DNA of 64,000 nucleotides from a virus. Below are positions 2,404 through 50,658 of the stretch, in pieces (the stretch's first letter is position 1; the number at the start of each line of letters is the position of its first letter). Both the position numbers and the translations under genes were made by a program. Below the pieces are notes generated by a model. That model was not told the origin of the DNA. It saw nothing but the letters and a program-made list of their open reading frames with translations, and ran no database searches. The DNA lies in IMG/VR virus record IMGVR_UViG_3300046542_000086, positions 1 through 64,000 of that record. One strand, given 5' to 3'.

Positions 2404-2760
2404 TTAAAGGTACAGATACAAACCCGTGGGTCTGATCATCAACGTCAATTCACCTTCTTGGACCAAGTGGTGGTTACACGCCTTGATCTTCCGGTAAAGC
2501 TGGGTGCGCAGGGTGTTACGCTTGTCAATCAGGTGGATCAGTTTGTAAATGTCATTTGGCGCATTATCCTCACGGAATACCAACAACAGTGTACTTTCAA
2601 TGCAGTCCTTCAACCAGATAGTCTCGATGGTGATCATCAACCACTGGAGTTCGTGTTGCTTTAATAGATGTTGAAACTGAGGGGTGCTTAAGGCGTCCCT
2701 GATCTCAGCCTGCAATAGGATCTGCAAGTTCCGGTAATCAGTTACTATTTGTAAATCCAT
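2404..2760 (-). CDS. Hypothetical protein, 118 aa, first gene after an early promoter
   Basis: ORF starting about 35 nt downstream of a TATATTA motif. Confidence 0.8.
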   Translation of the reverse strand: MDLQIVTDYRNLQILLQAEIRDALSTPQFQHLLKQHELQWLMITIETIWLKDCIESTLLLVFREDNAPNDIYKLIHLIDKRNTLRTQLYRKIKACNHHLVQEGELTLMIRPTGLYLYL

Positions 2761-2789
2761 CGTTCTAACCTTTCTGAAGGTTTGTTCAA

Positions 2790-2812
2790 TTGGATAATAT
2801 AGGTCTCAAACT
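2790..2812 (-). promoter_or_regulatory. phiKZ-type early promoter (variant TATATTAT)
   Basis: Minus strand TTTGAGACCTATATTATCC matches the other copies in the window. Confidence 0.65.
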
Positions 2813-2899
2813 AATTAGGATGACCTCTATGCCCTTTGCTCTATAAGATCAGGGGTATGTGTCAACTTATACAGAGAGTCGACTGAGGAGGCTTACAGA

Positions 2900-2940
2900 C
2901 GGCATAAAGCCCCTCACCGGATAACCAGCAAGGGGCTTTG
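2900..2940 (-). terminator. Hairpin with TTTATGCCG tail ending the tRNA/ncRNA block
   Basis: AAAGCCCCT...AGGGGCTTT stem followed by ATGCCG on the minus strand. Confidence 0.7.
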
Positions 2941-2950
2941 CGCTTTCTAC

Positions 2951-3422
2951 TCGTCGGTCAGCTATCTGTGAGTGGAGTCAGGTCCCCTCTCGGCCAACCT
3001 CATGGCGTCGGATGTAGCCAGGCGTGTTTTCCCACCTCTCGCTCCTGACAGCGATGAGGATTACGGCTAGAACGTACGCACCCCTCCAAATGCCCGGCTC
3101 GGCTGGTAAAGGTAGGATTCCCGATGCGTACTCGATTTACTCTAAAGTAAACCCCCTAGTGTATTACCCTAAGTCTGGCCAGACCGAAGGAGCAATAGAC
3201 TAGAGGCTGCACTTTACCGGGGTGACCAACTATAATGTCGCACGCCCCGACTCTTTACAACTTGAGCCCTTCGCAGGGGCCCCGTATCCTTTACATCGGG
3301 TCTGAGTGCGAGTCAGGTTCCAATGCTTCCTGTAGTACGTCTGCATTCCAGGATGAGGTTGCAAACGCTCAGCCCTTACCGGGCGGAGATACGTGATCCT
3401 CCGCACTCGCAGAGGACGACGA
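2951..3422 (-). ncRNA. Candidate ~470-nt structured ncRNA
   Basis: No ORF of 60 aa or more; nested end-to-end helices 2951-2956/3417-3422, 2965-2974/3404-3413 and 2995-3003/3353-3361; GNRA-capped hairpin on the minus strand. Confidence 0.55.
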
Positions 3423-3429
3423 TTTAGTA

Positions 3430-3930
3430 CCCCCGAACCTACCAGCTCTCTTGGACATATAGTCGTTTGATTTTGGCTGTGGACGGGGGAATCAAGCTAC
3501 CCTCTCTCTTTGAGTCGTCTACGCTTACAGATTTGCCTTGAAGGGGATCTGATTTGTGGTCCGGTCCTAAAAAGTAGTAACCATATCCTACGACGAACAG
3601 GGGATTAGCCTGTGAGGGTACAACTTAGGGTGAGCGGGAAAGCCGAAACCTTCCAGACAGTTAGATGCCCGACGGGGTGGGGCCTGTCCAAGAGTTGGGT
3701 AGATAAAGTCCAACTCAAGACTTGCGATACGCTCACTTAGGGAGCCTTCTCTCTACGTCGGGAAGGTTTATGTTCCGTTGCGCAGTACCATGACCTCGTT
3801 TGACCGAGAGAAGACATTACTCTTTACCCCATTAGTTCCCTTATCCCTGATTACCCTGCGCGTCAGGTCGAACGTAGATAAGGTAGGCGCGACAATGTCG
3901 CCTCGTTTTACTTCTGTTCCCTAAGGAACC
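3430..3930 (-). ncRNA. Hairpin-dense non-coding block including a four-way junction (3630-3736)
   Basis: No ORF; GTGAGCG/CGCTCAC closing stem with three internal arms, one UUCG-capped. Confidence 0.45.
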
Positions 3931-3936
3931 TTCTAA

Positions 3937-4070
3937 TGGGCATCCACCGGCAAGACTCGAACTTGCGACCTCCCGCGCTTCCCTCGCGCTAAACCACCCT
4001 CGCTACCGAAGTAGCTATCGATGGAGCCTTGGGATTAGACGAGTGTTCTAACCGACTGAACTACGGTGGC
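3937..4070 (-). ncRNA. tRNA-like RNA with a 62-nt anticodon loop
   Basis: GCCACCG-TA-GTTC AGTCGGTTA GAAC-A-CTCGT[62 nt]GCGGG-AGGTC-GCAAG TTCGAGT CTTGC-CGGTGGA. Confidence 0.8.
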
Positions 4071-4085
4071 GACTACAACTTAAAT

Positions 4086-4173
4086 TGGCGGAAGAACAGA
4101 GATTCGAACTCTGGGGGCTGTTACACCCGACGGTTTTCAAGACCGTTGCCTTAAGCCACTCGGCCATCCTTCC
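4086..4173 (-). tRNA. trnS: tRNA-Ser(UGA)
   Basis: Full cloverleaf, ACGGT-CT TGA AA-ACCGT, long variable arm, G73, encoded CCA. Confidence 0.95.
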
Positions 4174-4199
4174 AGAAATGATCCAGGATTCTATTCACC

Positions 4200-4385
4200 C
4201 TGGGAGTCACCGTACAGCCAAGGCGGCGGCTGTAATTCATTGGGAACTGAGTAAGGATCGCATGAACCTACGACATCAATACTCACTCTGCCTACCGAAG
4301 ACAGAGCAACACCTCATCGGTTCGTAACGAGTGTGAGCCCGTTACGCTGAGGGTGGTTGGGTAGACACCAGCAGGCGCAGGTGTT
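4200..4385 (-). ncRNA. Candidate structured RNA between the ORF and tRNA-Ser
   Basis: Hairpins TACAGCC/GGCTGTA, CTCTG/CAGAG and CGTAACG/CGTTACG within CCTCA/TGAGG. Confidence 0.35.
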
Positions 4386-4387
4386 CT

Positions 4388-4645
4388 TCAAGTCAAGCCT
4401 TCGCTCGACTCAGTAACTTCAGCAGACCCTTTGACAGGGGCTTGCTCTTCACCTTGCGGCGAAGTGGTGTACACATGGGGAAACAAGGCATTGCATTGCT
4501 CCTTACTGTCTTTTCCGAAGATACGATTCAACGCCTCAGTGAAGCGGACTTCGTCTTCAGGGGTGGGTGGTGGTAAAGGACGACCTGTACAAGCGTGCCA
4601 TCCGACACAACCACAGAGAGAACAACCAGCTGCTGTTTGCGACAT
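4388..4645 (-). CDS. Small protein with a Cys/His cluster (CSLCGCVGWHAC)
   Basis: GAGGA RBS; co-oriented with the tRNAs. Confidence 0.7.
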   Translation of the reverse strand: MSQTAAGCSLCGCVGWHACTGRPLPPPTPEDEVRFTEALNRIFGKDSKEQCNALFPHVYTTSPQGEEQAPVKGSAEVTESSEGLT

Positions 4646-4664
4646 TTGGTAATCCTCAGAATGG

Positions 4665-4753
4665 TGGCAGTAGATGAGAGATTCGAACTCTCGAGGCCCG
4701 AAGACCTACACCCTTAGCAGGGGCGCTCCTTAATCCATCTCAGACAATCTACT
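4665..4753 (-). tRNA. trnS: tRNA-Ser(GCU)
   Basis: AGTAGAT/ATCTACT acceptor, CGCCC-CT GCT AA-GGGTG, UUCG-capped variable arm, G73, CCA followed by a second CCA. Confidence 0.9.
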
Positions 4754-4810
4754 GTAAAAGGGTGCTTCGATCATTACCCGGTGTGTGGTCTGTTTTTTGG
4801 TTTGTAGATC

Positions 4811-4898
4811 TGGTGGCCCCACCAGGATTTCGGGTTGTACCTGAAATGCTACCTCGGAGGGTAGAGTTATACCTTACGGCGTTTTTAACTACAGGGCC
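4811..4898 (-). ncRNA. tRNA-like RNA with expanded D and T loops and a 6-nt anticodon loop
   Basis: GGCCCTG/TGGGGCC-ACCA acceptor; GTTA/TAAC D stem; CTACC-CTCCGA-GGTAG; TCAGG/CCTGG T stem with a 13-nt loop. Confidence 0.7.
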
Positions 4899-4922
4899 TT
4901 TCTTACCACACCACTGATCGAA

Positions 4923-4995
4923 TGTCTTCTTAGGAGAATCGAACTCCCGTGAGTCGCCTGTGTGGCAACCGTTCTACCATTGAACTATCGAAGAC
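4923..4995 (-). pseudogene. Degenerate tRNA or tRNA mimic (loop CACACAG, no U33, two acceptor mismatches, no CCA)
   Basis: GTTC AATGGTA GAAC D arm, GTTGC/GCGAC stem, GGGAG TTCGATT CTCCT T arm. Confidence 0.7.
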
Positions 4996-5023
4996 GGGGC
5001 GAGTTGTTTCCCTTAGGTCTGTG

Positions 5024-5167
5024 CTTTCTGAGGTCGGATTCGAACCGACAAAGTCGCGTGCTCAAGCCATTACGCTGCGCACTGGACGGCACCCACAGAC
5101 AGGCGGCCCACTATGGGACTAGGGGATGCGATCCCCAGGGTATACCAATTCCCCCACTCGAGGGAAA
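5024..5167 (-). ncRNA. Leu-type tRNA-like RNA with a 72-nt branched variable arm
   Basis: GGG GAATTGGTATA CCC D arm, GGGGA-TCGCA-TCCCC, 72-nt insert, GTCGG TTCGAAT CCGAC T arm. Confidence 0.75.
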
Positions 5168-5195
5168 CAACTCTATCCACCCCTAAGGTGGAATT

Positions 5196-5272
5196 TGGCT
5201 CACCTTCTAGGACTCGAACCTAGGACACCTCGGTTAACAGCCGAGTGCAACTACCAACTGTGCTAAAGGTGA
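5196..5272 (-). tRNA. trnN: tRNA-Asn(GUU)
   Basis: TCACCTT/AAGGTGA acceptor, CTCGG-CT GTT AA-CCGAG, G73, CCA. Confidence 0.95.
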
Positions 5273-5281
5273 ATGAAACTT

Positions 5282-5521
5282 TTAACACATGACAGCAGGG
5301 CCAGTGTCACTATGACAAGGACAGGTACAAACCTTCTCCTCATCGCCATTTGGTTTTACCATGACCCAGTTACGGTGGGGTCTTGGTGAAGTGAAATCAC
5401 GTTCTTCAATACGAACAATCTCACCAAACAGTTTTCGAAGGCGTTCGACATCGGGTTGACTATCGTAACCGACCTTGAAAGTTGCTTGGGGGACACTGCA
5501 ACATCCGAACATGACATTCAC
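5282..5521 (-). CDS. Small Cys-containing hypothetical protein (CTCPCH)
   Basis: GGAG RBS; packed with neighbours. Confidence 0.7.
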   Translation of the reverse strand: MNVMFGCCSVPQATFKVGYDSQPDVERLRKLFGEIVRIEERDFTSPRPHRNWVMVKPNGDEEKVCTCPCHSDTGPAVMC

Positions 5522-5529
5522 TCCGGTGC

Positions 5530-5712
5530 TTAGGAAGCCGTTACAACTTCGGCAACCTTGATTTCGCGGTCGTCGTAGACAACACGATCAGCGGACTGAC
5601 CATCTTGCAGGACGAACTGTTCGTGAACTTCGCCAGTGACGCGATTCACGATGGTCACTTCTACATGCTTTTCAGCCGAGCAGTGAGCTTGAACTTTTAC
5701 AGAAGTAGTCAT
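5530..5712 (-). CDS. Hypothetical protein, 60 aa
   Basis: AAGGAG RBS, highly expressed codon style. Confidence 0.8.
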   Translation of the reverse strand: MTTSVKVQAHCSAEKHVEVTIVNRVTGEVHEQFVLQDGQSADRVVYDDREIKVAEVVTAS

Positions 5713-5722
5713 GATGACTCCT

Positions 5723-6184
5723 TTAGAGGGTTTCCAGGATCTGCCAGTCGTCAGCCAGTTGATCCGACTGAGCCGGAGTCCACGGGGTGAAGACGTTCTG
5801 AGCAGTCTTCATGCCGACCCATGGAGCTAAGGTTGGACACTCGTTGACACCGGGTTTGAAGCCAATGGTTGCGCAGCCTACGTCGTAATGACCAGGCTTA
5901 ACCATCACCAACCACATACCTTGACCATTCCACGAAGGGCGAGTAACTCGCTTACCTTGCTTCAGGGCTTCGATAGCGAGACCGAAGTTCAGAGCATCGC
6001 ATGGACGGTAGCTGTCCTCGAACACGGCTTTAGGCGACCACGACTGGTGACCGTTGTCGTATTCAACTAGGTAGCCTTCATCAGCACCGTTCTCGCCGGC
6101 AGGAAGTTCCCAGCCTTTACGGTGGTTGTACTCCAACCGAGTCATCGGTTTACCAACAACCTTCTTGGTGCCAATGTAGTTCAT
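5723..6184 (-). CDS. DUF2829 / Tad2-like anti-defence sponge protein with an extra N-terminal domain
   Basis: FGLAIEALKQGKRVTRPSWNGQGMWL...WTPAQSDQLADDW signature. Confidence 0.75.
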   Translation of the reverse strand: MNYIGTKKVVGKPMTRLEYNHRKGWELPAGENGADEGYLVEYDNGHQSWSPKAVFEDSYRPCDALNFGLAIEALKQGKRVTRPSWNGQGMWLVMVKPGHYDVGCATIGFKPGVNECPTLAPWVGMKTAQNVFTPWTPAQSDQLADDWQILETL

Positions 6185-6193
6185 GACTAATCC

Positions 6194-6355
6194 TTAACAG
6201 ACCATGATGGGCACTGGTATGCCCTGTTCTTTGCAAACACGCTCAAGGTTCTCCTGAGCATCCTGCCATTGCTTTAGCCTAGCGAGGGTTTCCTCACGAG
6301 ACTGGGGTTTGATCTTGGAACGATCCAGATCACGTAAGCGAAATGTACGTACCAT
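6194..6355 (-). CDS. Small protein, 53 aa (MVRTFRLRDLDRSK...PIMVC)
   Basis: Hand-translated; AAGGAG RBS; below the ORF-track cutoff. Confidence 0.7.
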   Translation of the reverse strand: MVRTFRLRDLDRSKIKPQSREETLARLKQWQDAQENLERVCKEQGIPVPIMVC

Positions 6356-6436
6356 GACCAACTCCTTAAAAAATGGGACTGTTGCCTCGAAAGGCTTAGA
6401 GTCTGTGACGACCCGACCCCGACAGTTAGCGGGATT

Positions 6437-6654
6437 TCAACGTAGGTTGCTTTATACCTGACTAAGCGACCAACCTGTTGAGGATTGGCTAGGGGTATGA
6501 TCCCTAGTTCTCTCTACGTTGATTTTCTGAAGTTGACAGAGGAGAAAGGCGGCTCGTTTTATCTCCCGACTTGTACCCATGCACCTTAATGAACCACTGG
6601 GCGGCTCCTTTGAGTGCGGTTCGGCTGTACCCTACCGTCTGTCAATCAACTTCA
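6437..6654 (-). ncRNA. Two adjacent end-paired structured elements (6437-6522 and 6528-6654) directly downstream of tRNA-Asp
   Basis: 9-bp closing stems TCAACGTAG/CTACGTTGA and TGAAGTTGA/TCAACTTCA. Confidence 0.5.
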
Positions 6655-6660
6655 AAAAAC

Positions 6661-6737
6661 TGGCGCCTCCGAACGGACTTGAACCGTCGACCCCTAGCGT
6701 GACAGGCTAGTGCTCTAACCAACTGAGCTACGGAAGC
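6661..6737 (-). tRNA. trnD: tRNA-Asp(GUC)
   Basis: GCTTCCG/CGGAGGC acceptor, CTAGC-CT GTC AC-GCTAG, G73, CCA. Confidence 0.95.
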
Positions 6738-6937
6738 GAAAAGGTCCTGAGGAAGATGGACTCTGCGATCACCCAGACTGTGCCTGTAGGTGCATCGCTT
6801 GTAGGCTCAAGGTTCGTATAGACAACCATGGGCCAAGAACAGTCTTGAGCGTGACGAGCTAGGCTTAGCACTTTAAAGCGCAGCCCACTAGGAGATTTGT
6901 ACTCTCTTAGTTCCTCGATACTCTCTAACATGTTCAT
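6728..6937 (-). CDS. DUF1653-like small protein
   Basis: Y...G..FKVL..ARH.....MVVY..L......WV.....F pattern; GAGGA RBS. Confidence 0.7.
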   Translation of the reverse strand: MNMLESIEELREYKSPSGLRFKVLSLARHAQDCSWPMVVYTNLEPTSDAPTGTVWVIAESIFLRTFSLP

Positions 6938-6950
6938 TCCTCAAATAGGT

Positions 6951-7174
6951 GATCCTCCCAGCGTCTGAACGCCGGGTTAATGCTGAGGCGCGCCCGTAAC
7001 CGACATTCGCTCAAAAGGCTCGTCTAAGTGGGCGCACAGCAAAGGATCGTAAATGTGACCAGTGTTGTGCATCGAAGCACTGCTAGTTCCCGGACCGCAC
7101 TAGCTTTCCAATGTATACGGCTGACGCGATGTCAGCTATGGCCCTACACACTGACCTCCCTGAGGTACACTGGT
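6951..7174 (-). ncRNA. Two end-paired multibranch elements (6951-7048 and 7058-7174)
   Basis: GATCCT/AGGATC and ACCAGTGT/ACACTGGT closing stems; four internal hairpins in the second, the last being GTGC-TTCGAT-GCAC. Confidence 0.55.
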
Positions 7175-7180
7175 ATAAAC

Positions 7181-7337
7181 TGGCCCCGAGGGATGGATTC
7201 GAACCATCGACCTATCCGTTCAACCGACTCCGTTTGACGGGAGAGTTTAGTTACACCCGCCCAGTCAACTCCACCTTGCGGCTCACGTTGCGAATACGGA
7301 TGCTCTCGGACTGTTCTACCAACTGAACTACCCAGGG
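7181..7337 (-). ncRNA. tRNA-like RNA with an 88-nt structured anticodon loop and encoded CCA
   Basis: CCCTGGG-TA-GTTC AGTTGGTA GAAC-A-GTCCG[88 nt]CGGAT-AGGTC-GATGG TTCGAAT CCATC-CCTCGGG-G-CCA. Confidence 0.85.
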
Positions 7338-7346
7338 GATAAACCT

Positions 7347-7502
7347 TTAATAGTACTCACCACGCTCAGGACGAGCCTTAGTGGCACCGATCCCAACGAT
7401 GAACACGACTGCGAATACAACCAGTCCTGCTGTTGGGCTGAAGACTGCTGGAACAGCCGCCGTGAGTAACGCGGGTACAAATACAAACACTGCGCGCATC
7501 AT
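7347..7502 (-). CDS. Small membrane protein, 51 aa (MMRAVFVFVPALL...GEYY)
   Basis: Hand-translated; AAGGAGAG RBS; two hydrophobic stretches. Confidence 0.7.
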   Translation of the reverse strand: MMRAVFVFVPALLTAAVPAVFSPTAGLVVFAVVFIVGIGATKARPERGEYY

Positions 7503-7814
7503 GACGACTCTCCTTGAATTTAACCGCTACCCCGACCTACGGAACGAAATACAACAGTGTGGCCCAAGTGGTAAAAAGAAAAGAAAAACCACTTGGTAAT
7601 GCGGCATGCAAGCGCATCATGTATCACACCGTTGCCGGGTCACGCATTGACTAAACCGTAATCTACCGGATACCCGTCATTTCCAGTATATCCCAAAGGG
7701 AAGATTCCCCCAAAGCCGTGAAGCCTTAGGTCGTGCTGGAATCACTACTATCAGCCAATAACGCGTTAGTCTCTCAATAGATCAGTGTTCCATGTAAAAA
7801 AATACGTAAGTACA

Positions 7815-7846
7815 GGCAAAAAAAAAGAAGCCCCCGAAGAGGCTCC
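7815..7846 (-). terminator. Intrinsic terminator with U tract
   Basis: GGAGCCTC-TTCG-GGGGCTTC followed by T9. Confidence 0.85.
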
Positions 7847-7851
7847 CTTAA

Positions 7852-8040
7852 TCACCAACCAACTTTACGCCTCAACCTAGGATTTAGGAAGGGGGCGATA
7901 AACCCTACGAAGAGGATCACGTTGGCCAGTATGTACATTGCGAAGTGGTGCACAAACTTGATGTCGATCACTGCTACGAGCACGTAGAGCATGATTACGC
8001 AGAACGGATAGATGTAACCGCTGGGCATAGGTTTCTTCAT
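7852..8040 (-). CDS. Small two-TM membrane protein
   Basis: Hydrophobic ORF; likely start MKKPMPS. Confidence 0.65.
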   Translation of the reverse strand: MKKPMPSGYIYPFCVIMLYVLVAVIDIKFVHHFAMYILANVILFVGFIAPFLNPRLRRKVGW

Positions 8041-8050
8041 GGACTGTACC

Positions 8051-8461
8051 TTAAGGGATTGCTGGGAAACCAACGATCTTCAAGATCAGATTGCGTTTAC
8101 GACGGTACCAACCTGCTGACTTCGCTGGGAAGCCTCTGTCACCACTTTGCTTACGGATTTGATTGTCGTCTTCGAACAACAGGGGGATGGGGAAGTATCT
8201 CCAGTGTTTAGGGTCACCAGAGCGCACCAGAGCGTGCAGGGTGCGTTTGCTCCACTTACCTGTCTCAATGCCCATGATCAACTCTTGCTTGATCTCTTCG
8301 TGCTCTGCTTCGCTTGGATAGATCTCGAACAAGTTCTTGTAATGAGCAACTGTGGTTTTGTCATCGTTGGTAGTCTTCTCCATGATGAAGAGGACGCCAC
8401 CGATGTCGTGTAGGGAAGTGTTACCGTTTTCGTACTTGTGGGTGATATGATCGGCAGACAT
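8051..8461 (-). CDS. Early hypothetical protein
   Basis: Start MSADHIT with AAGAAGG RBS, just downstream of an early promoter. Confidence 0.75.
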   Translation of the reverse strand: MSADHITHKYENGNTSLHDIGGVLFIMEKTTNDDKTTVAHYKNLFEIYPSEAEHEEIKQELIMGIETGKWSKRTLHALVRSGDPKHWRYFPIPLLFEDDNQIRKQSGDRGFPAKSAGWYRRKRNLILKIVGFPAIP

Positions 8462-30630: not shown

Positions 30631-31009
30631 CCTTACGTAGACGGTGTCCTAACACCAACTCGTGTACAAGGTAGAATAGCTCTAGTTCAACAAGATACTC
30701 TTTGTCCAATGACCATGGTCTGATGTAGTTGTTCTTAAGGGAGTAATCGTAGAACTGTTGGTAGCACTGAGCCTTCTCAGGCCAGCGATCACTGAATGCC
30801 AAACACCACTGGAAGTAGAACACCACCAACGGATTGTTCCCACAGACTTGATGCACCCTCATGGGTCGTAGTTCTTTATGGAACTCTGCCACTAAGGAGT
30901 TGAACTCCTTGTGTTCGGTATCTGTACGTCCCCGCAGATCAACCGAATCGTAAAGGATCACCCCATCCATTACAGCAACCAACATTGTTCTGTAGCGATC
31001 AACGTCCAT
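30623..31009 (-). CDS. Hypothetical protein
   Basis: 128-aa ORF. Confidence 0.7.
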   Translation of the reverse strand: MDVDRYRTMLVAVMDGVILYDSVDLRGRTDTEHKEFNSLVAEFHKELRPMRVHQVCGNNPLVVFYFQWCLAFSDRWPEKAQCYQQFYDYSLKNNYIRPWSLDKEYLVELELFYLVHELVLGHRLRKAA

Positions 31010-49900: not shown

Positions 49901-50658
49901 AGTCGATCTTCTTCGCAGATGGTCGTCCTCGTACGGTAGCACAAGTCTACGCTGAGATTGACCGTCGGGTTCGTGTACACCGGGCTAAGTATGCTGGTGA
50001 CGCACGTGCGGCTGGTGGGTTCTCTGCTAACGTAGACGTTCCTACTTCGGCTCCGTCAATTCCGGGTGTAACAGCTCCGACTGCTGCTCCATCAGCTAGT
50101 GGGACTCCTGCTCCTAAAGCTCCTGCAAGTGGCGGTCCAATTGGGATCATGGCTCCAGCGGCTCCGACTGCTGCTCCTGAAGTCCCAGCGACTAAACAGT
50201 CTCCATTGGTTCAATCGGTTGCTGCTGCGGCACCAGCTGCAATGCCAACGGGTCCTGTCGCCCCAGTAACTAACAGCGTTCCTCCAAGCACTGGTGTAAC
50301 TAGTGAGCCTGCACTGGGTGGTAACGTAGCTGAAGCCGCTGTGATCCGTAAGGCACAGGCTGAGAGACAAGCACAAGCTGCCTCGTTGCAAGACCAGGAA
50401 TCAAGTGCTGCGTTGAATCAGAACTTCAGTGGTGTGGCTGAGGTCATGCGCAAACAACTGGAGATTCAGCTGAAGATGGCTCAGTCGTTGGATAACATCG
50501 ACCAAGGTATTCAGACGCTGGTCAAGAGTGGTTCTGTAGCAGCCGCAGGTCAACCTGCTCGTAATGAACCTGTTGCGAGTAGATCCAACACCGCAGTTAA
50601 ACCGACAGACGTGCCTGCACGTTTGACGCCCATTAGCATGAAGCGGTTGAAGGCGTAA
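43936..50658 (+). CDS. Giant tail-associated protein with a C-terminal lytic transglycosylase (phiKZ gp181-like)
   Basis: 2240 aa; IESGF...ATGLYQFISGTW...YLAHFLG SLT motifs; Gly/Ala-rich tape-measure-like body. Confidence 0.92.
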   Translation: MAKDKNEFGDDDDLKWDDLDFGDDFPDFDAPPPADDRKPVVKVATSFLKGAAEELTDPTRVRKMALDALPEGYGKAANLADTIASTGRELYHTTAEELKPVIKDAKRVARRVLPLTKSLLPEKLQKKLEDMTSDNEYKGPSVEQTRDSQINSEVADIFKLQMENDARDKAEDEVADQTKRKQDTARFKTELQTLNAILGGVNRQVAYQDQIASKYQRKHLELQFLQYFTLRDTYELHKASAKETKSQLDNVIKNTGLPEFAKSNVTEHAGHLFRERLLNAASSKVNQFAKGYIDKYKDNIIKKGKEQIGAFKDGAMQGLTGVDMLLDSREQMADMGEGGDAYTGGGKMLGGMAGGWLGSKVSKLAKPLLERNPGIAKWGNKLEYGVDNFASLSSDWAKSDKGENTGMDWWNKALRGFKDLSPTEVVDSSLGDSDLTRSQDAVPFNHLARKTLTDIIPGYLSRIHHELAIIRTGDPSLKRLGYDLKDGGFASMDKVTKSMGSVLFDQTKNFDKVKGTTNNLIDGLEKQHGQKFSDTQRKALYDKFIGEAASGQGRFDVKKFADVDQWKDLSDEDALKLSYMFSDDVGEEQQNKYSKEFLKIREGVNNPTDAIKGLIDSGQLESMRALGLVTGEGDGRKVSQERIVDILRNGGFGEPTDEGTPPPNGSPPSPDSRPGGGGPLGGLRNANDAPKGAGQKDGGIDTPKNPNEFMEVIGEYQMLLLEDIRKGIANPAALSQYAEAARNAPGATEETCECVDKMVEAYKAGNDELVQHLANVYELLASGQLQTMSMSMPFDPERFNTVGGHLGRGLSKLKGAGKWGLGKVTGFYGSMLSMQKNLLKGGVKGAWSAAKGAGNLLLGRAKDQLNEWGDVYIKGQGRPILTWAQLKAGEYLNEDGTPITSWKDVKGPVKNKAGQYVLTAEQFAKGLVDEHARPMFTKIKDFGMKWAGRLSSFVTSPFRGMKDAIKGTFNTVKDFVERPRDMYLPGNPIPVLLASVMQAGGYKNSDGSEIRKITDIKGTVYDLEGNVVVSLESLRAGLVDVAGKKFKSLGQAVLGGAGKLIGGAVGLGIKAFKGVSNHMSKMLGGLKSGAGNLFNKGRGMLKGLKVPGLGGDTEMMEVIGEYQILLLEEIRDAIRAQSAKKVKGDFDGDGLRNGSGEALSASRKKTRDEREAKQKAADEERKKGKGEKKGGLMGLLTMIGGAVMGMAKGFMDLPKTLITAMRAMSAAKALGSAADLAGGAGRGGKLARGAKALGRGLLGAGSMLGTAAMGVGRLAFGGVSGLARGAWAVGSAAVGVLGAPVVLGIAAAAAVGYLGYKAWKSYKKTGNSDLLKYRVAQYGLDYEDDEQTKKVFELESLIGPNVKFNGRGPEINWQNVDVKRVREIFGLKDDDPEGLKRFGTWFETRFGPVFVSHLKMLQKYSTSTKIEEADEVVKIEDKLKFLEGVQVDDADTTYGELTSPFGDEALSMGPSQVKAVYDTVVAHIKEQLPKGKDKTGKEPAVGIAGAAAAATLAGGPLAGLATANAKAEVEQTLASKVGGWLSNAVSSIPGAGMVGSAFNWLKDKVLGKDFKVPDIMNREIDPLTSIRYRLYGLAEMNYSRVSPISRLEERVLKDISYSGSKQAEFNGDAEDIWNEVAGGFTSSPNSEAVKTRWMKWFGERFLPVMIAFLTGVQKFVSNGNPFEAHDRLKASQSLEIARFMNSSQSNYDKQSNENSSVWGVTASPFDDYEVNTDATVLKPFMAALEESANKETLNEKVKTERAGKVQALLNKVTGSSGKANPSPLWEDEGVADRSSVPKPLLKAMYGVMPMAGGEAGYTKGGLGTLDVGAGAGGNIAGLPEVTGPDGEYSTYKDMIIAVSKMVGVDPGLMATMASIESGFRGRVKAATSSATGLYQFISGTWKTMLAKYGSKYGLSPDTPSSDPRANALMGAEYIRENSAILKAKTGRTPTDTDIYLAHFLGPGGAAKLLSADPSANAATLMPSAAGANKSIFFADGRPRTVAQVYAEIDRRVRVHRAKYAGDARAAGGFSANVDVPTSAPSIPGVTAPTAAPSASGTPAPKAPASGGPIGIMAPAAPTAAPEVPATKQSPLVQSVAAAAPAAMPTGPVAPVTNSVPPSTGVTSEPALGGNVAEAAVIRKAQAERQAQAASLQDQESSAALNQNFSGVAEVMRKQLEIQLKMAQSLDNIDQGIQTLVKSGSVAAAGQPARNEPVASRSNTAVKPTDVPARLTPISMKRLKA

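Follow-up and report, generated by a model that had tools for sequence, protein, structure and literature searches.

Predicted structured RNAs, several built on a tRNA body, in the tRNA block of a phiKZ-like jumbo phage

We describe a 4.9-kb block (positions 2900-7815, minus strand) in a 64,000-nucleotide (nt) stretch of viral DNA, called the window below, which is the first 64 kb of the 81.7-kb contig of IMG/VR record IMGVR_UViG_3300046542_000086. Comparison with homologues shows that this block holds, beside four ordinary transfer RNAs (tRNAs), about a dozen predicted RNAs with folds under selection. Of these, at least five or six are built on a tRNA body, with acceptor, D and T arms intact and no usable anticodon loop, and two further RNAs, elements A and B, lie directly behind a real tRNA and a tRNA-shaped module, respectively. 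On balance, we lean towards the view that the block is a tRNA and non-coding RNA (ncRNA) operon of a phiKZ-like jumbo phage, in which tRNA bodies serve as processing handles for cargo RNAs. Open reading frames (ORFs) account for about 1.7 kb of the block, tRNAs for 0.33 kb and other non-coding sequence for about 2.9 kb (59%), and all features share one strand, with a strong terminator at one end and a terminal hairpin that covaries at the other (Table 1).

Results

Compensatory change in homologues of the block

By using DNA pattern scans and genome searches, we found four syntenic relatives (G001, G002, G006 and G007) with 65-95% identity; further homologues for the alignments came from metagenome loci of the same lineage, with 4-10 related phage contigs per test. 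The homologues of each module were aligned, a consensus fold was computed with RNAalifold, and pairs changed on both sides (compensatory pairs) were counted and compared with alignments whose columns had been shuffled within conservation classes. An earlier note on this DNA, made from the sequence of the window, argued that its structures are under selection rather than decaying and proposed covariation in homologues as a check. Our data bear this out: most non-coding modules exceed the column-shuffled controls, with compensatory changes far above them, and the coding controls show no such excess (0 versus 1.0 shuffled in the Tad2 ORF and 1 versus 1.8 in a 55-amino-acid (aa) ORF). In addition, the minus strand folds better than its complement in 13 of the 15 non-coding modules. 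An Rfam scan of positions 2700-8100 at E<=10 returned tRNA matches and sub-threshold noise only, with no family for any non-tRNA module. HPnc0260 (antisense to tRNA-Asp) and sX4 (over tRNA-Ser) belong to this noise and were rejected.

RNAs with a tRNA body and no decoding loop

The earlier note held that odd elements in the block keep tRNA architecture, and the Rfam tRNA model (RF00005, cut-off 29 bits) agrees, matching 3942-4070 and 4924-4994 above the cut-off and 7192-7328 below it; 5020-5172 and 4764-4923 gave no match. In place of a decoding loop (7 nt, U33 and a conserved anticodon), these RNAs carry inserts of 60 and about 88 nt, A33 or variable loops, and some of their homologues carry capped stems. 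At 7181-7337, where a G-CCA end is encoded in the window, we counted 12 compensatory pairs versus 2.2 in shuffled alignments (z -8.0, n=8). The acceptor stem changes among relatives from CCCUGGG/CCUCGGG to CCUCUUG/CAAGGGG, the second pair of the T stem is A-U, U-A or G-C, and the insert retains helices of its own. At 3942-4070, with 20 compensatory pairs versus 3.0 (z -8.9, n=9), each relative has different residues on either side of the insert, and the insert helix covaries beneath a UUCG or UUAG cap. The inserts had been described as themselves paired and capped, which fits the covariation of their helices and the UUCG and GCAA caps legible in the sequence.

The remaining members of this group are less uniform. 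The gene at 4924-4994 has an invariant CACACAG loop, an acceptor stem whose base is weak in the window and no encoded CCA; its copies in G006 and G007 are called tRNA-Val by ARAGORN, and it shows 6 compensatory pairs versus 0.5. It could be an unusual tRNA that still functions, or it could only resemble one. The module at 4764-4923 has 13 compensatory pairs versus 1.8 (z -8.9, n=9), and of the tRNA mimic that had been read at 4811-4898 the stems covary but a match to the Rfam tRNA model is missing. The GGUACAA motif of element A (6570-6635) also occurs in the enlarged T loop of this module (4830-4850), by chance or as a shared binding site. For 5020-5172, which is common to G002 only among the five aligned relatives and recurs in 5 metagenome loci, we found 5 compensatory pairs versus 1.0 (pid 0.88). 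The Leu-type scaffold with a 72-nt variable arm proposed there (5024-5167) keeps a clean T arm and an acceptor-like stem, but its exact cloverleaf reading is tentative. Finally, 6437-6522 reads, from its order of arms, as a circularly permuted tRNA-like element, with weak covariation (1 versus 0.5) and partial homologues in Psa21-like phages.

Element B and the module ahead of it

Homologues of element B were located by an invariant 24-mer in 20 IMG/VR and 14 metagenome stretches, including complete 310-317-kb genomes and a 566-kb contig, and in 0 of 185,579 species genomes. Across the 20 aligned sequences, 97.1% of cells are paired, compared with 76% after shuffling and 29-48% with slid partners, and double changes were found in 18 of the 30 pairs. 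The corresponding covariance model, R1, scores 129 bits at 3818-3941 and finds a single copy in the contig. Wherever the context can be read, a tRNA-shaped module of 68-129 nt with a good T arm and acceptor stem precedes element B at a distance of 2-4 nt, and the next tRNA often follows directly 3′ of B. The anticodon arm of the module ahead ranges from a 3-nt loop through UUCG-capped stems to folded inserts of 40-60 nt. Because B always stands behind a tRNA-shaped module whose anticodon arm varies freely, our results support the earlier proposal that the tRNA fold serves as a chassis: pairing in the acceptor, D and T arms is maintained through compensatory changes, and the anticodon arm is interchangeable.

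Two stretches about 600 nt apart in a complete 310-kb phage genome (G008:C1:49574-49729 and 50169-50320) match the tRNA-like plus B region. A miniature B-like RNA in phage pEa_SNUABM_9 (L004 3580-3659; 22.4 bits, E 7e-5) has P1, P3 and the UAA.ACGAGGCG joiner in place but no P4 or P5; a hypothetical protein is annotated at this site on the other strand. Short stretches of element B resemble 5S ribosomal RNA, a candidate identity that we rejected, as RF00001 had no match in the contig at E<=10 and the control was positive in 14/14 genomes.

Element A and its likeness to element B

Element A folds into a closing stem around two hairpins, with invariant loops that contain GAGCCGCC and with GGGUACA occurring twice. 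Its homologues are found in Psa21, D6, HPP-Temi (a phage of P. aeruginosa), Erwinia phage pEa_SNUABM_9 and 5 IMG/VR contigs, and in the window and the four cultured phages it always lies directly 3′ of a real tRNA. Compensatory changes affect 11 of its 26 pairs (12 sequences) and fall in the closing stem and both hairpins, beside the invariant loops. Covariance model R2, made for element A, gives 129-165 bits on members. GenBank places 'hypothetical protein' coding sequences over element A in HPP-Temi (L003 4045-4137) and pEa_SNUABM_9 (L004 4052-4306), which are probably mis-calls.

The two elements have the motifs UAAAACGAG(G/C)CG and GCA.GGGUA in common, in reversed order. Since the shared motifs stand in opposite order, A and B may be rearranged relatives, a suggestion drawn from their sequences. 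The single-stranded joiners of both elements are invariant, which suggests a protein-binding, ligand-binding or catalytic site.

Other structured modules

The remaining non-coding space had been described as filled with further multibranch elements. This is supported by covariation in relatives for most of it, but not for 6362-6436 and 3739-3817. The multi-branch RNA at 7056-7176 is among the better supported modules, and the element at 6948-7050, which has tRNA-Tyr directly upstream in relatives, is weak (Table 1). Support is moderate for the leader at 7503-7795 (19 compensatory pairs versus 6.5 shuffled at n=5, z -5.1; 16 versus 7.0 at n=8) and for the stretch at 4174-4387.

At the 3′ end of the block, the two domains of 3492-3738 show 18 compensatory pairs versus 3.6 (n=11), and in their closing helix (3614-3620/3498-3504) 6 of the 7 pairs are compensatory. 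Farther downstream, the counts are 43 versus 6.1 at 3122-3491 (z -10.3) and 4 versus 1.4, a moderate result, at 2900-3121. Over the 860-nt tail as a whole, the consensus of six sequences has 228 pairs, of which 59 are compensatory. Since every well-supported helix is local, as in 3409-3421/3392-3404 (9 compensatory pairs) and 3313-3326/3293-3305 (8 compensatory pairs), the consensus model presents the tail as a chain of domains rather than a single end-paired giant RNA. The long-range helices proposed earlier for 2951-3422 are absent from the consensus fold, and local hairpins with compensatory changes take their place.

Ordinary tRNAs and cassette turnover

ARAGORN calls all four tRNAs that the earlier note had considered canonical, and the Rfam tRNA model lists three of these. 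A T-arm motif scan found eight T arms on the minus strand within the block, including a fifth non-canonical one at 5037-5045. Remote from the block, a T-arm-like hairpin (stem, TTCAACT loop, stem) is found at 30897-30905, also on the minus strand.

Close relatives differ in their true tRNAs (Tyr, Gln, Arg) and retain the ncRNA modules, which are more constant than the tRNAs. In G001, G002, G006 and G007, tRNA-Tyr stands between two ncRNA modules, joined in G001 and G006 by tRNA-Gln, and the equivalent site of the window (7047-7058), compared with L055 and L056, is empty. That the ncRNA modules are kept while tRNAs are swapped argues that these ncRNAs are not accessories of decoding.

Source phage, block boundaries and small ORFs

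A rhizosphere metagenome is the public run that covers this DNA best, and it probably yielded the contig. Among the genes of the contig are those for beta subunits of a phiKZ-type multisubunit RNA polymerase, for a large terminase and for a tail sheath, and its closest kin in GenBank are the Pseudomonas syringae jumbo phages Psa21 and D6, with similarity at the tRNA level only. From these proteins and this kinship, we assign the source phage to the phiKZ-like jumbo phages. The label 'nucleus-forming' would have its basis in the phiKZ-type RNA polymerase subunits and the kinship to Psa21.

Of the two terminators thought to bound the block, the one at 7824-7849 was detected. The hairpin at 2902-2943 covaries, a different complementary stem being substituted in G002 and L092, but its U tract is weak and the terminator scan makes no call there; it is the probable 3′ end of the unit. 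Within the block, five ORFs show an excess of third-position substitutions, and the non-coding modules are flat across codon positions. The Tad2-like gene said to be embedded in the block is confirmed by PF11195. The 69-aa ORF had been a candidate DUF1653 member, for which we found no Pfam support. Two other ORFs are doubtful. The 79-aa ORF at 5282-5521 occurs in the window only: G001 aligns poorly and has stops, the other relatives are without the whole segment, and there is no Pfam match. The 85-aa ORF at 4388-4645 shows no third-position substitution excess, aligns poorly in relatives and may not be a conserved gene.

Table 1. Positions of features in and around the block, in window coordinates
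Feature	Positions	Strand	Evidence
Intrinsic terminator of the upstream gene, 5′ boundary of the block	7824-7849	-	11-bp stem, UUCG loop, U run; stem covaries in relatives
AT-rich box directly behind the terminator	7792-7809	-	Conserved in relatives; one occurrence in the window
Structured leader RNA before the 51-aa ORF	7503-7795	-	Conserved, 73-77% identity; no codon periodicity
51-aa ORF, hydrophobic	7347-7502	-	Third-position substitution excess in relatives; no Pfam family
tRNA-shaped RNA, folded insert of about 88 nt replacing the anticodon loop	7181-7337	-	Rfam tRNA 22.1 bits at 7192-7328 (cut-off 29)
Multi-branch RNA with a T-arm-like hairpin	7056-7176	-	12 compensatory pairs versus 2.2 shuffled, z -10.3, n=5
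End-paired structured element	6948-7050	-	4 compensatory pairs versus 1.8 shuffled, z -4.4, n=4 (weak)
69-aa ORF, overlapping the start of tRNA-Asp	6728-6937	-	ORF list; weak coding signature; no Pfam family
tRNA-Asp (GTC)	6661-6737	-	ARAGORN; Rfam 68 bits
Element A, RNA of about 125 nt directly behind a tRNA	6524-6655	-	12-sequence alignment; no Rfam match
Permuted tRNA-like element: closing stem, T-like arm, loop-closed acceptor, D-like arm	6437-6522	-	4-sequence alignment
Small conserved ORF flanking the Tad2-like gene	6194-6361	-	Strong third-position substitution excess
Tad2-like (DUF2829) gene	5723-6184	-	PF11195, 84.3 bits; strong third-position substitution excess
Small conserved ORF flanking the Tad2-like gene	5530-5712	-	Strong third-position substitution excess
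tRNA-Asn (GTT)	5196-5272	-	ARAGORN; Rfam 58 bits
tRNA-derived RNA, perfect T arm and large extra hairpins	5020-5172	-	T arm 5029-5045
tRNA-Val(CAC)-like gene	4924-4994	-	Rfam 31.6 bits; 7-nt loop with A33 instead of U33
tRNA-shaped core with enlarged D and T loops, inside a long outer stem	4764-4923	-	Covariation in relatives
tRNA-Ser (GCT)	4665-4753	-	ARAGORN, in the window and all four relatives; not in the Rfam tRNA list at E<=1
Structured non-coding stretch before tRNA-Ser	4174-4387	-	10-14 compensatory pairs versus 4.5-6.2 shuffled (moderate)
tRNA-Ser (TGA)	4086-4173	-	ARAGORN; Rfam 54.5 bits
tRNA-shaped front module of a two-part RNA, 60-nt insert replacing the anticodon loop	3942-4070	-	Rfam 42.4 bits
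Element B, core of about 115 nt, helices P1-P5, invariant joining strands	3818-3941	-	20-sequence alignment; model R1
Two end-paired domains, 3630-3736 and 3498-3620	3492-3738	-	91-97% conserved even in the most distant relative
Chain of local hairpins and domains	2944-3491	-	Covariation; no ORF >=60 aa; codon positions flat
Terminal stem-loop, then UUUAUGCC	2902-2943	-	Covaries in relatives

Discussion

In a model consistent with our data, transcription of the block would start just behind the 7824-7849 terminator, end at the 2902-2943 hairpin and yield a single long minus-strand precursor or a few of them. Host ribonuclease (RNase) P would cleave each tRNA-shaped module on its 5′ side, and RNase E/Z-type enzymes, together with exonucleases, would process the 3′ side. 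In this way, tRNAs and their look-alikes would punctuate the precursor and provide stable handles for cargo domains attached to them or next to them. The cargo would comprise the inserts in the anticodon position, core B, fused 3′ of a tRNA-like module, and core A, which follows a real tRNA. More speculatively, the released stable RNAs could act in trans, most likely by binding either a protein that belongs to the tRNA or translation machinery or a defence protein directed at tRNAs, as the invariant joiners of A and B suggest. A counter-defence role, with decoys for anticodon nucleases or tRNA-sensing proteins as the earlier note proposed, is a hypothesis for which the neighbouring Tad2-like gene is the one hint.

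Several points weigh against this model. We infer the transcripts of the block, their ends and their processing from sequence; among the public runs listed for this DNA none is of RNA, and in wastewater 'RNA-Seq' runs, contigs of relatives cover coding and non-coding parts alike and are probably DNA, which makes them no guide to expression. A promoter search found no sigma-70-like site in the block, and the AT-rich box at 7792-7809, which we infer to be a candidate promoter, does not recur in the window. CCA is encoded behind some tRNA-like modules only and never between a tRNA-like module and B, so this junction may or may not be cut. As reported above, 6362-6436 and 3739-3817 are without covariation support, and the leader and 4174-4387, where support is moderate, could be cis-acting structures of untranslated regions (UTRs). 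Finally, a partner search found no Ro60/TROVE gene in any of five B-carrying phage records, four of them complete genomes; the positive control was detected in Deinococcus and Bacteroides.

Other explanations can be offered for all or part of the block. The odd elements might be decaying pseudo-tRNAs, functionless debris of cassette turnover, and turnover does occur: tRNA content is not the same in close relatives, and entire cassettes are gained or lost (tRNA-Tyr, Gln and Arg, and the 5020-5172 element). We find this explanation hardly credible, given compensatory changes far above the shuffled controls, the 70-85% conservation of A and B across phages whose neighbouring genes no longer align, and ncRNA modules that are steadier than the tRNAs. 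It is also very unlikely that the insert-bearing genes encode genuine decoding tRNAs, with inserts that are spliced out of the transcript as introns. The best case for introns is 7181-7337, with its complete tRNA body, its encoded G-CCA and an insert that terminates, immediately before the 3′ strand of the anticodon stem, in UUGAA or, in some relatives, UCGAA; this end resembles the 3′ half of a Gln or Arg anticodon loop and looks like a remnant of one. However, no excision restores a U33 loop there, and none yields a 7-nt U33 loop in all relatives. The inserts are 60-88 nt long and covary as helices, no Rfam family, introns included, matches them, the residues flanking the loop of 3942-4070 are unconserved, and homologous modules elsewhere have 3-nt loops or UUCG-capped stems, which are non-decoding. 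Moreover, neither an archaeal-type splicing endonuclease (PF01974) nor RtcB (PF01139) was found in G000, G001, G002, G006 and G007, records that are 30-86% complete. We conclude that the inserts are in all likelihood not introns.

For parts of the non-coding sequence, a cis-acting role as UTRs (leaders, RNase barriers or terminators) of the small ORFs (51-aa, 55-aa, Tad2-like, 60-aa and 85-aa) is conceivable and, in our judgement, rather unlikely. The 290-nt conserved leader lies directly before the 51-aa ORF and 4174-4387 lies behind the 85-aa ORF, both with moderate covariation, but A and B stand between tRNAs in other phages with no ORF nearby, and the 860-nt tail has no downstream ORF before the terminal hairpin, so that UTRs would explain a few modules at most. 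A and B could instead have a role like that proposed for the theta ribozymes, which are hepatitis delta virus (HDV)-like and lie beside phage tRNAs; their existence shows that phages do place ribozymes at tRNA 3′ ends (PMC10879173). Both elements begin 2-10 nt behind the 3′ end of a tRNA or tRNA-like module, and their varying helices with invariant joining strands are the pattern expected of a ribozyme or a ligand pocket. Against this, the Rfam scan matched no ribozyme family, the HDV type included. In both A and B, covariation supports a P1 that brings the 5′ end and the 3′ end together, whereas HDV-like ribozymes fold as a nested double pseudoknot. We regard such a role as quite unlikely. 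A bolder proposal, which we hold as tentative and unlikely, is that the tRNA-like plus B unit and A form a new class of phage RNA acting on the tRNA system, either as a ribozyme for the processing or repair of tRNA ends or as a tRNA-shaped particle that captures a host tRNA-directed enzyme (an anticodon nuclease, an RNase, a modification enzyme or a CCA enzyme), the remainder of the island being a toolbox of similar effectors on tRNA handles. The model of tRNA bodies as processing handles remains the one we prefer.

Our analysis defines two RNA families, A and tRNA-like plus B, with clean and testable consensus structures. Since these families are present in cultured phages of Pseudomonas syringae, P. 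aeruginosa and Erwinia amylovora, the old question of what the stable tRNA-like RNAs in phage tRNA clusters do becomes experimentally approachable. If the RNAs were effectors against host tRNA-directed enzymes or defences, they would constitute an RNA-based layer in phage takeover and counter-defence, and they would offer natural designs for tRNA-scaffolded RNA expression.

A full-text literature search found no paper on A, B or tRNA-like plus core RNAs in jumbo phages, and in a catalogue from 2023 that covers about 10,000 candidate viral RNAs, tRNA-like candidates are mentioned in general terms only (PMC10690425). The theta ribozymes are likewise structured RNAs immediately 3′ of a phage tRNA, but they have a different fold and are reported from gut phages of Bacteroidota and Bacillota, in contrast to the Pseudomonas and Erwinia jumbo phages studied here (PMC10879173). 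In phiKZ itself, an abundant ncRNA of about 100 nt lies between PHIKZ298 and PHIKZ297, in the tRNA region (PMC8545117); models R1 and R2 find neither A nor B there. PA5oct ncRNA001 and ncRNA002 were rejected as counterparts, being located away from tRNAs in a phage of another genus. GOLLD and ROOL are not among the Rfam matches for the scanned region. The YrlA/Y RNAs (RF02553), partners of Ro60, are tRNA-mimicking ncRNAs with the same permuted order as 6437-6522; RF02553 had no match in the same scan and a weak one in a single relative (23.6 bits, cut-off 69).

The closest parallels in kind are the stable RNAs of T4 and T5. In T4, rnaC ('species 1') and rnaD ('species 2') are annotated behind the tRNAs, and the rnaC sequence has a T arm and an acceptor-like end. 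The T5 tRNA region contains RNA1, RNA2, RNA3, RNAI, RNAIII, RNAIV and RNA2H among tRNAs, small ORFs and homing endonucleases; GenBank labels three of these seven 'tRNA-like' and all of them 'with unknown functions'. The T4 stable RNAs are cut from tRNA precursors by RNase P, as the older T4 literature describes. Like these RNAs, the modules described here lie within a phage tRNA cluster, on the same strand, with small ORFs and with T arm and acceptor features. When the T4, T5 and phiKZ tRNA regions were searched with models R1 and R2, filters off, a comparison that concerns A and B alone, noise was the only result, and the T4/T5 RNAs and A/B are, on this sequence evidence, analogous rather than homologous. 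The claim of an undescribed RNA system thus needs qualification: mixed arrays of this kind are known from T4 and T5, but the A and B families are absent from Rfam, T4, T5 and phiKZ. What also sets the block apart is its much larger non-coding share, about 2.9 kb and a dozen covarying modules, which makes the T4/T5-type phenomenon of RNAs in tRNA clusters a far larger one in phiKZ-like jumbo phages.

With canonical tRNAs (RF00005), the odd genes share the acceptor, D and T arms and normal-looking D- and T-loop sequences, and they differ in that folded inserts or capped stems, varying among relatives, replace the anticodon arm. Use of the tRNA fold as a handle for RNase P/Z processing and stability is known from engineered tRNA scaffolds, the mascRNA of MALAT1, the tRNA-microRNA units of gammaherpesviruses and the t-elements of plant mitochondria. 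Those systems are eukaryotic, organellar or artificial, whereas here the setting is a bacteriophage and the putative cargo sits in the anticodon position or is appended 3′ of the tRNA body.

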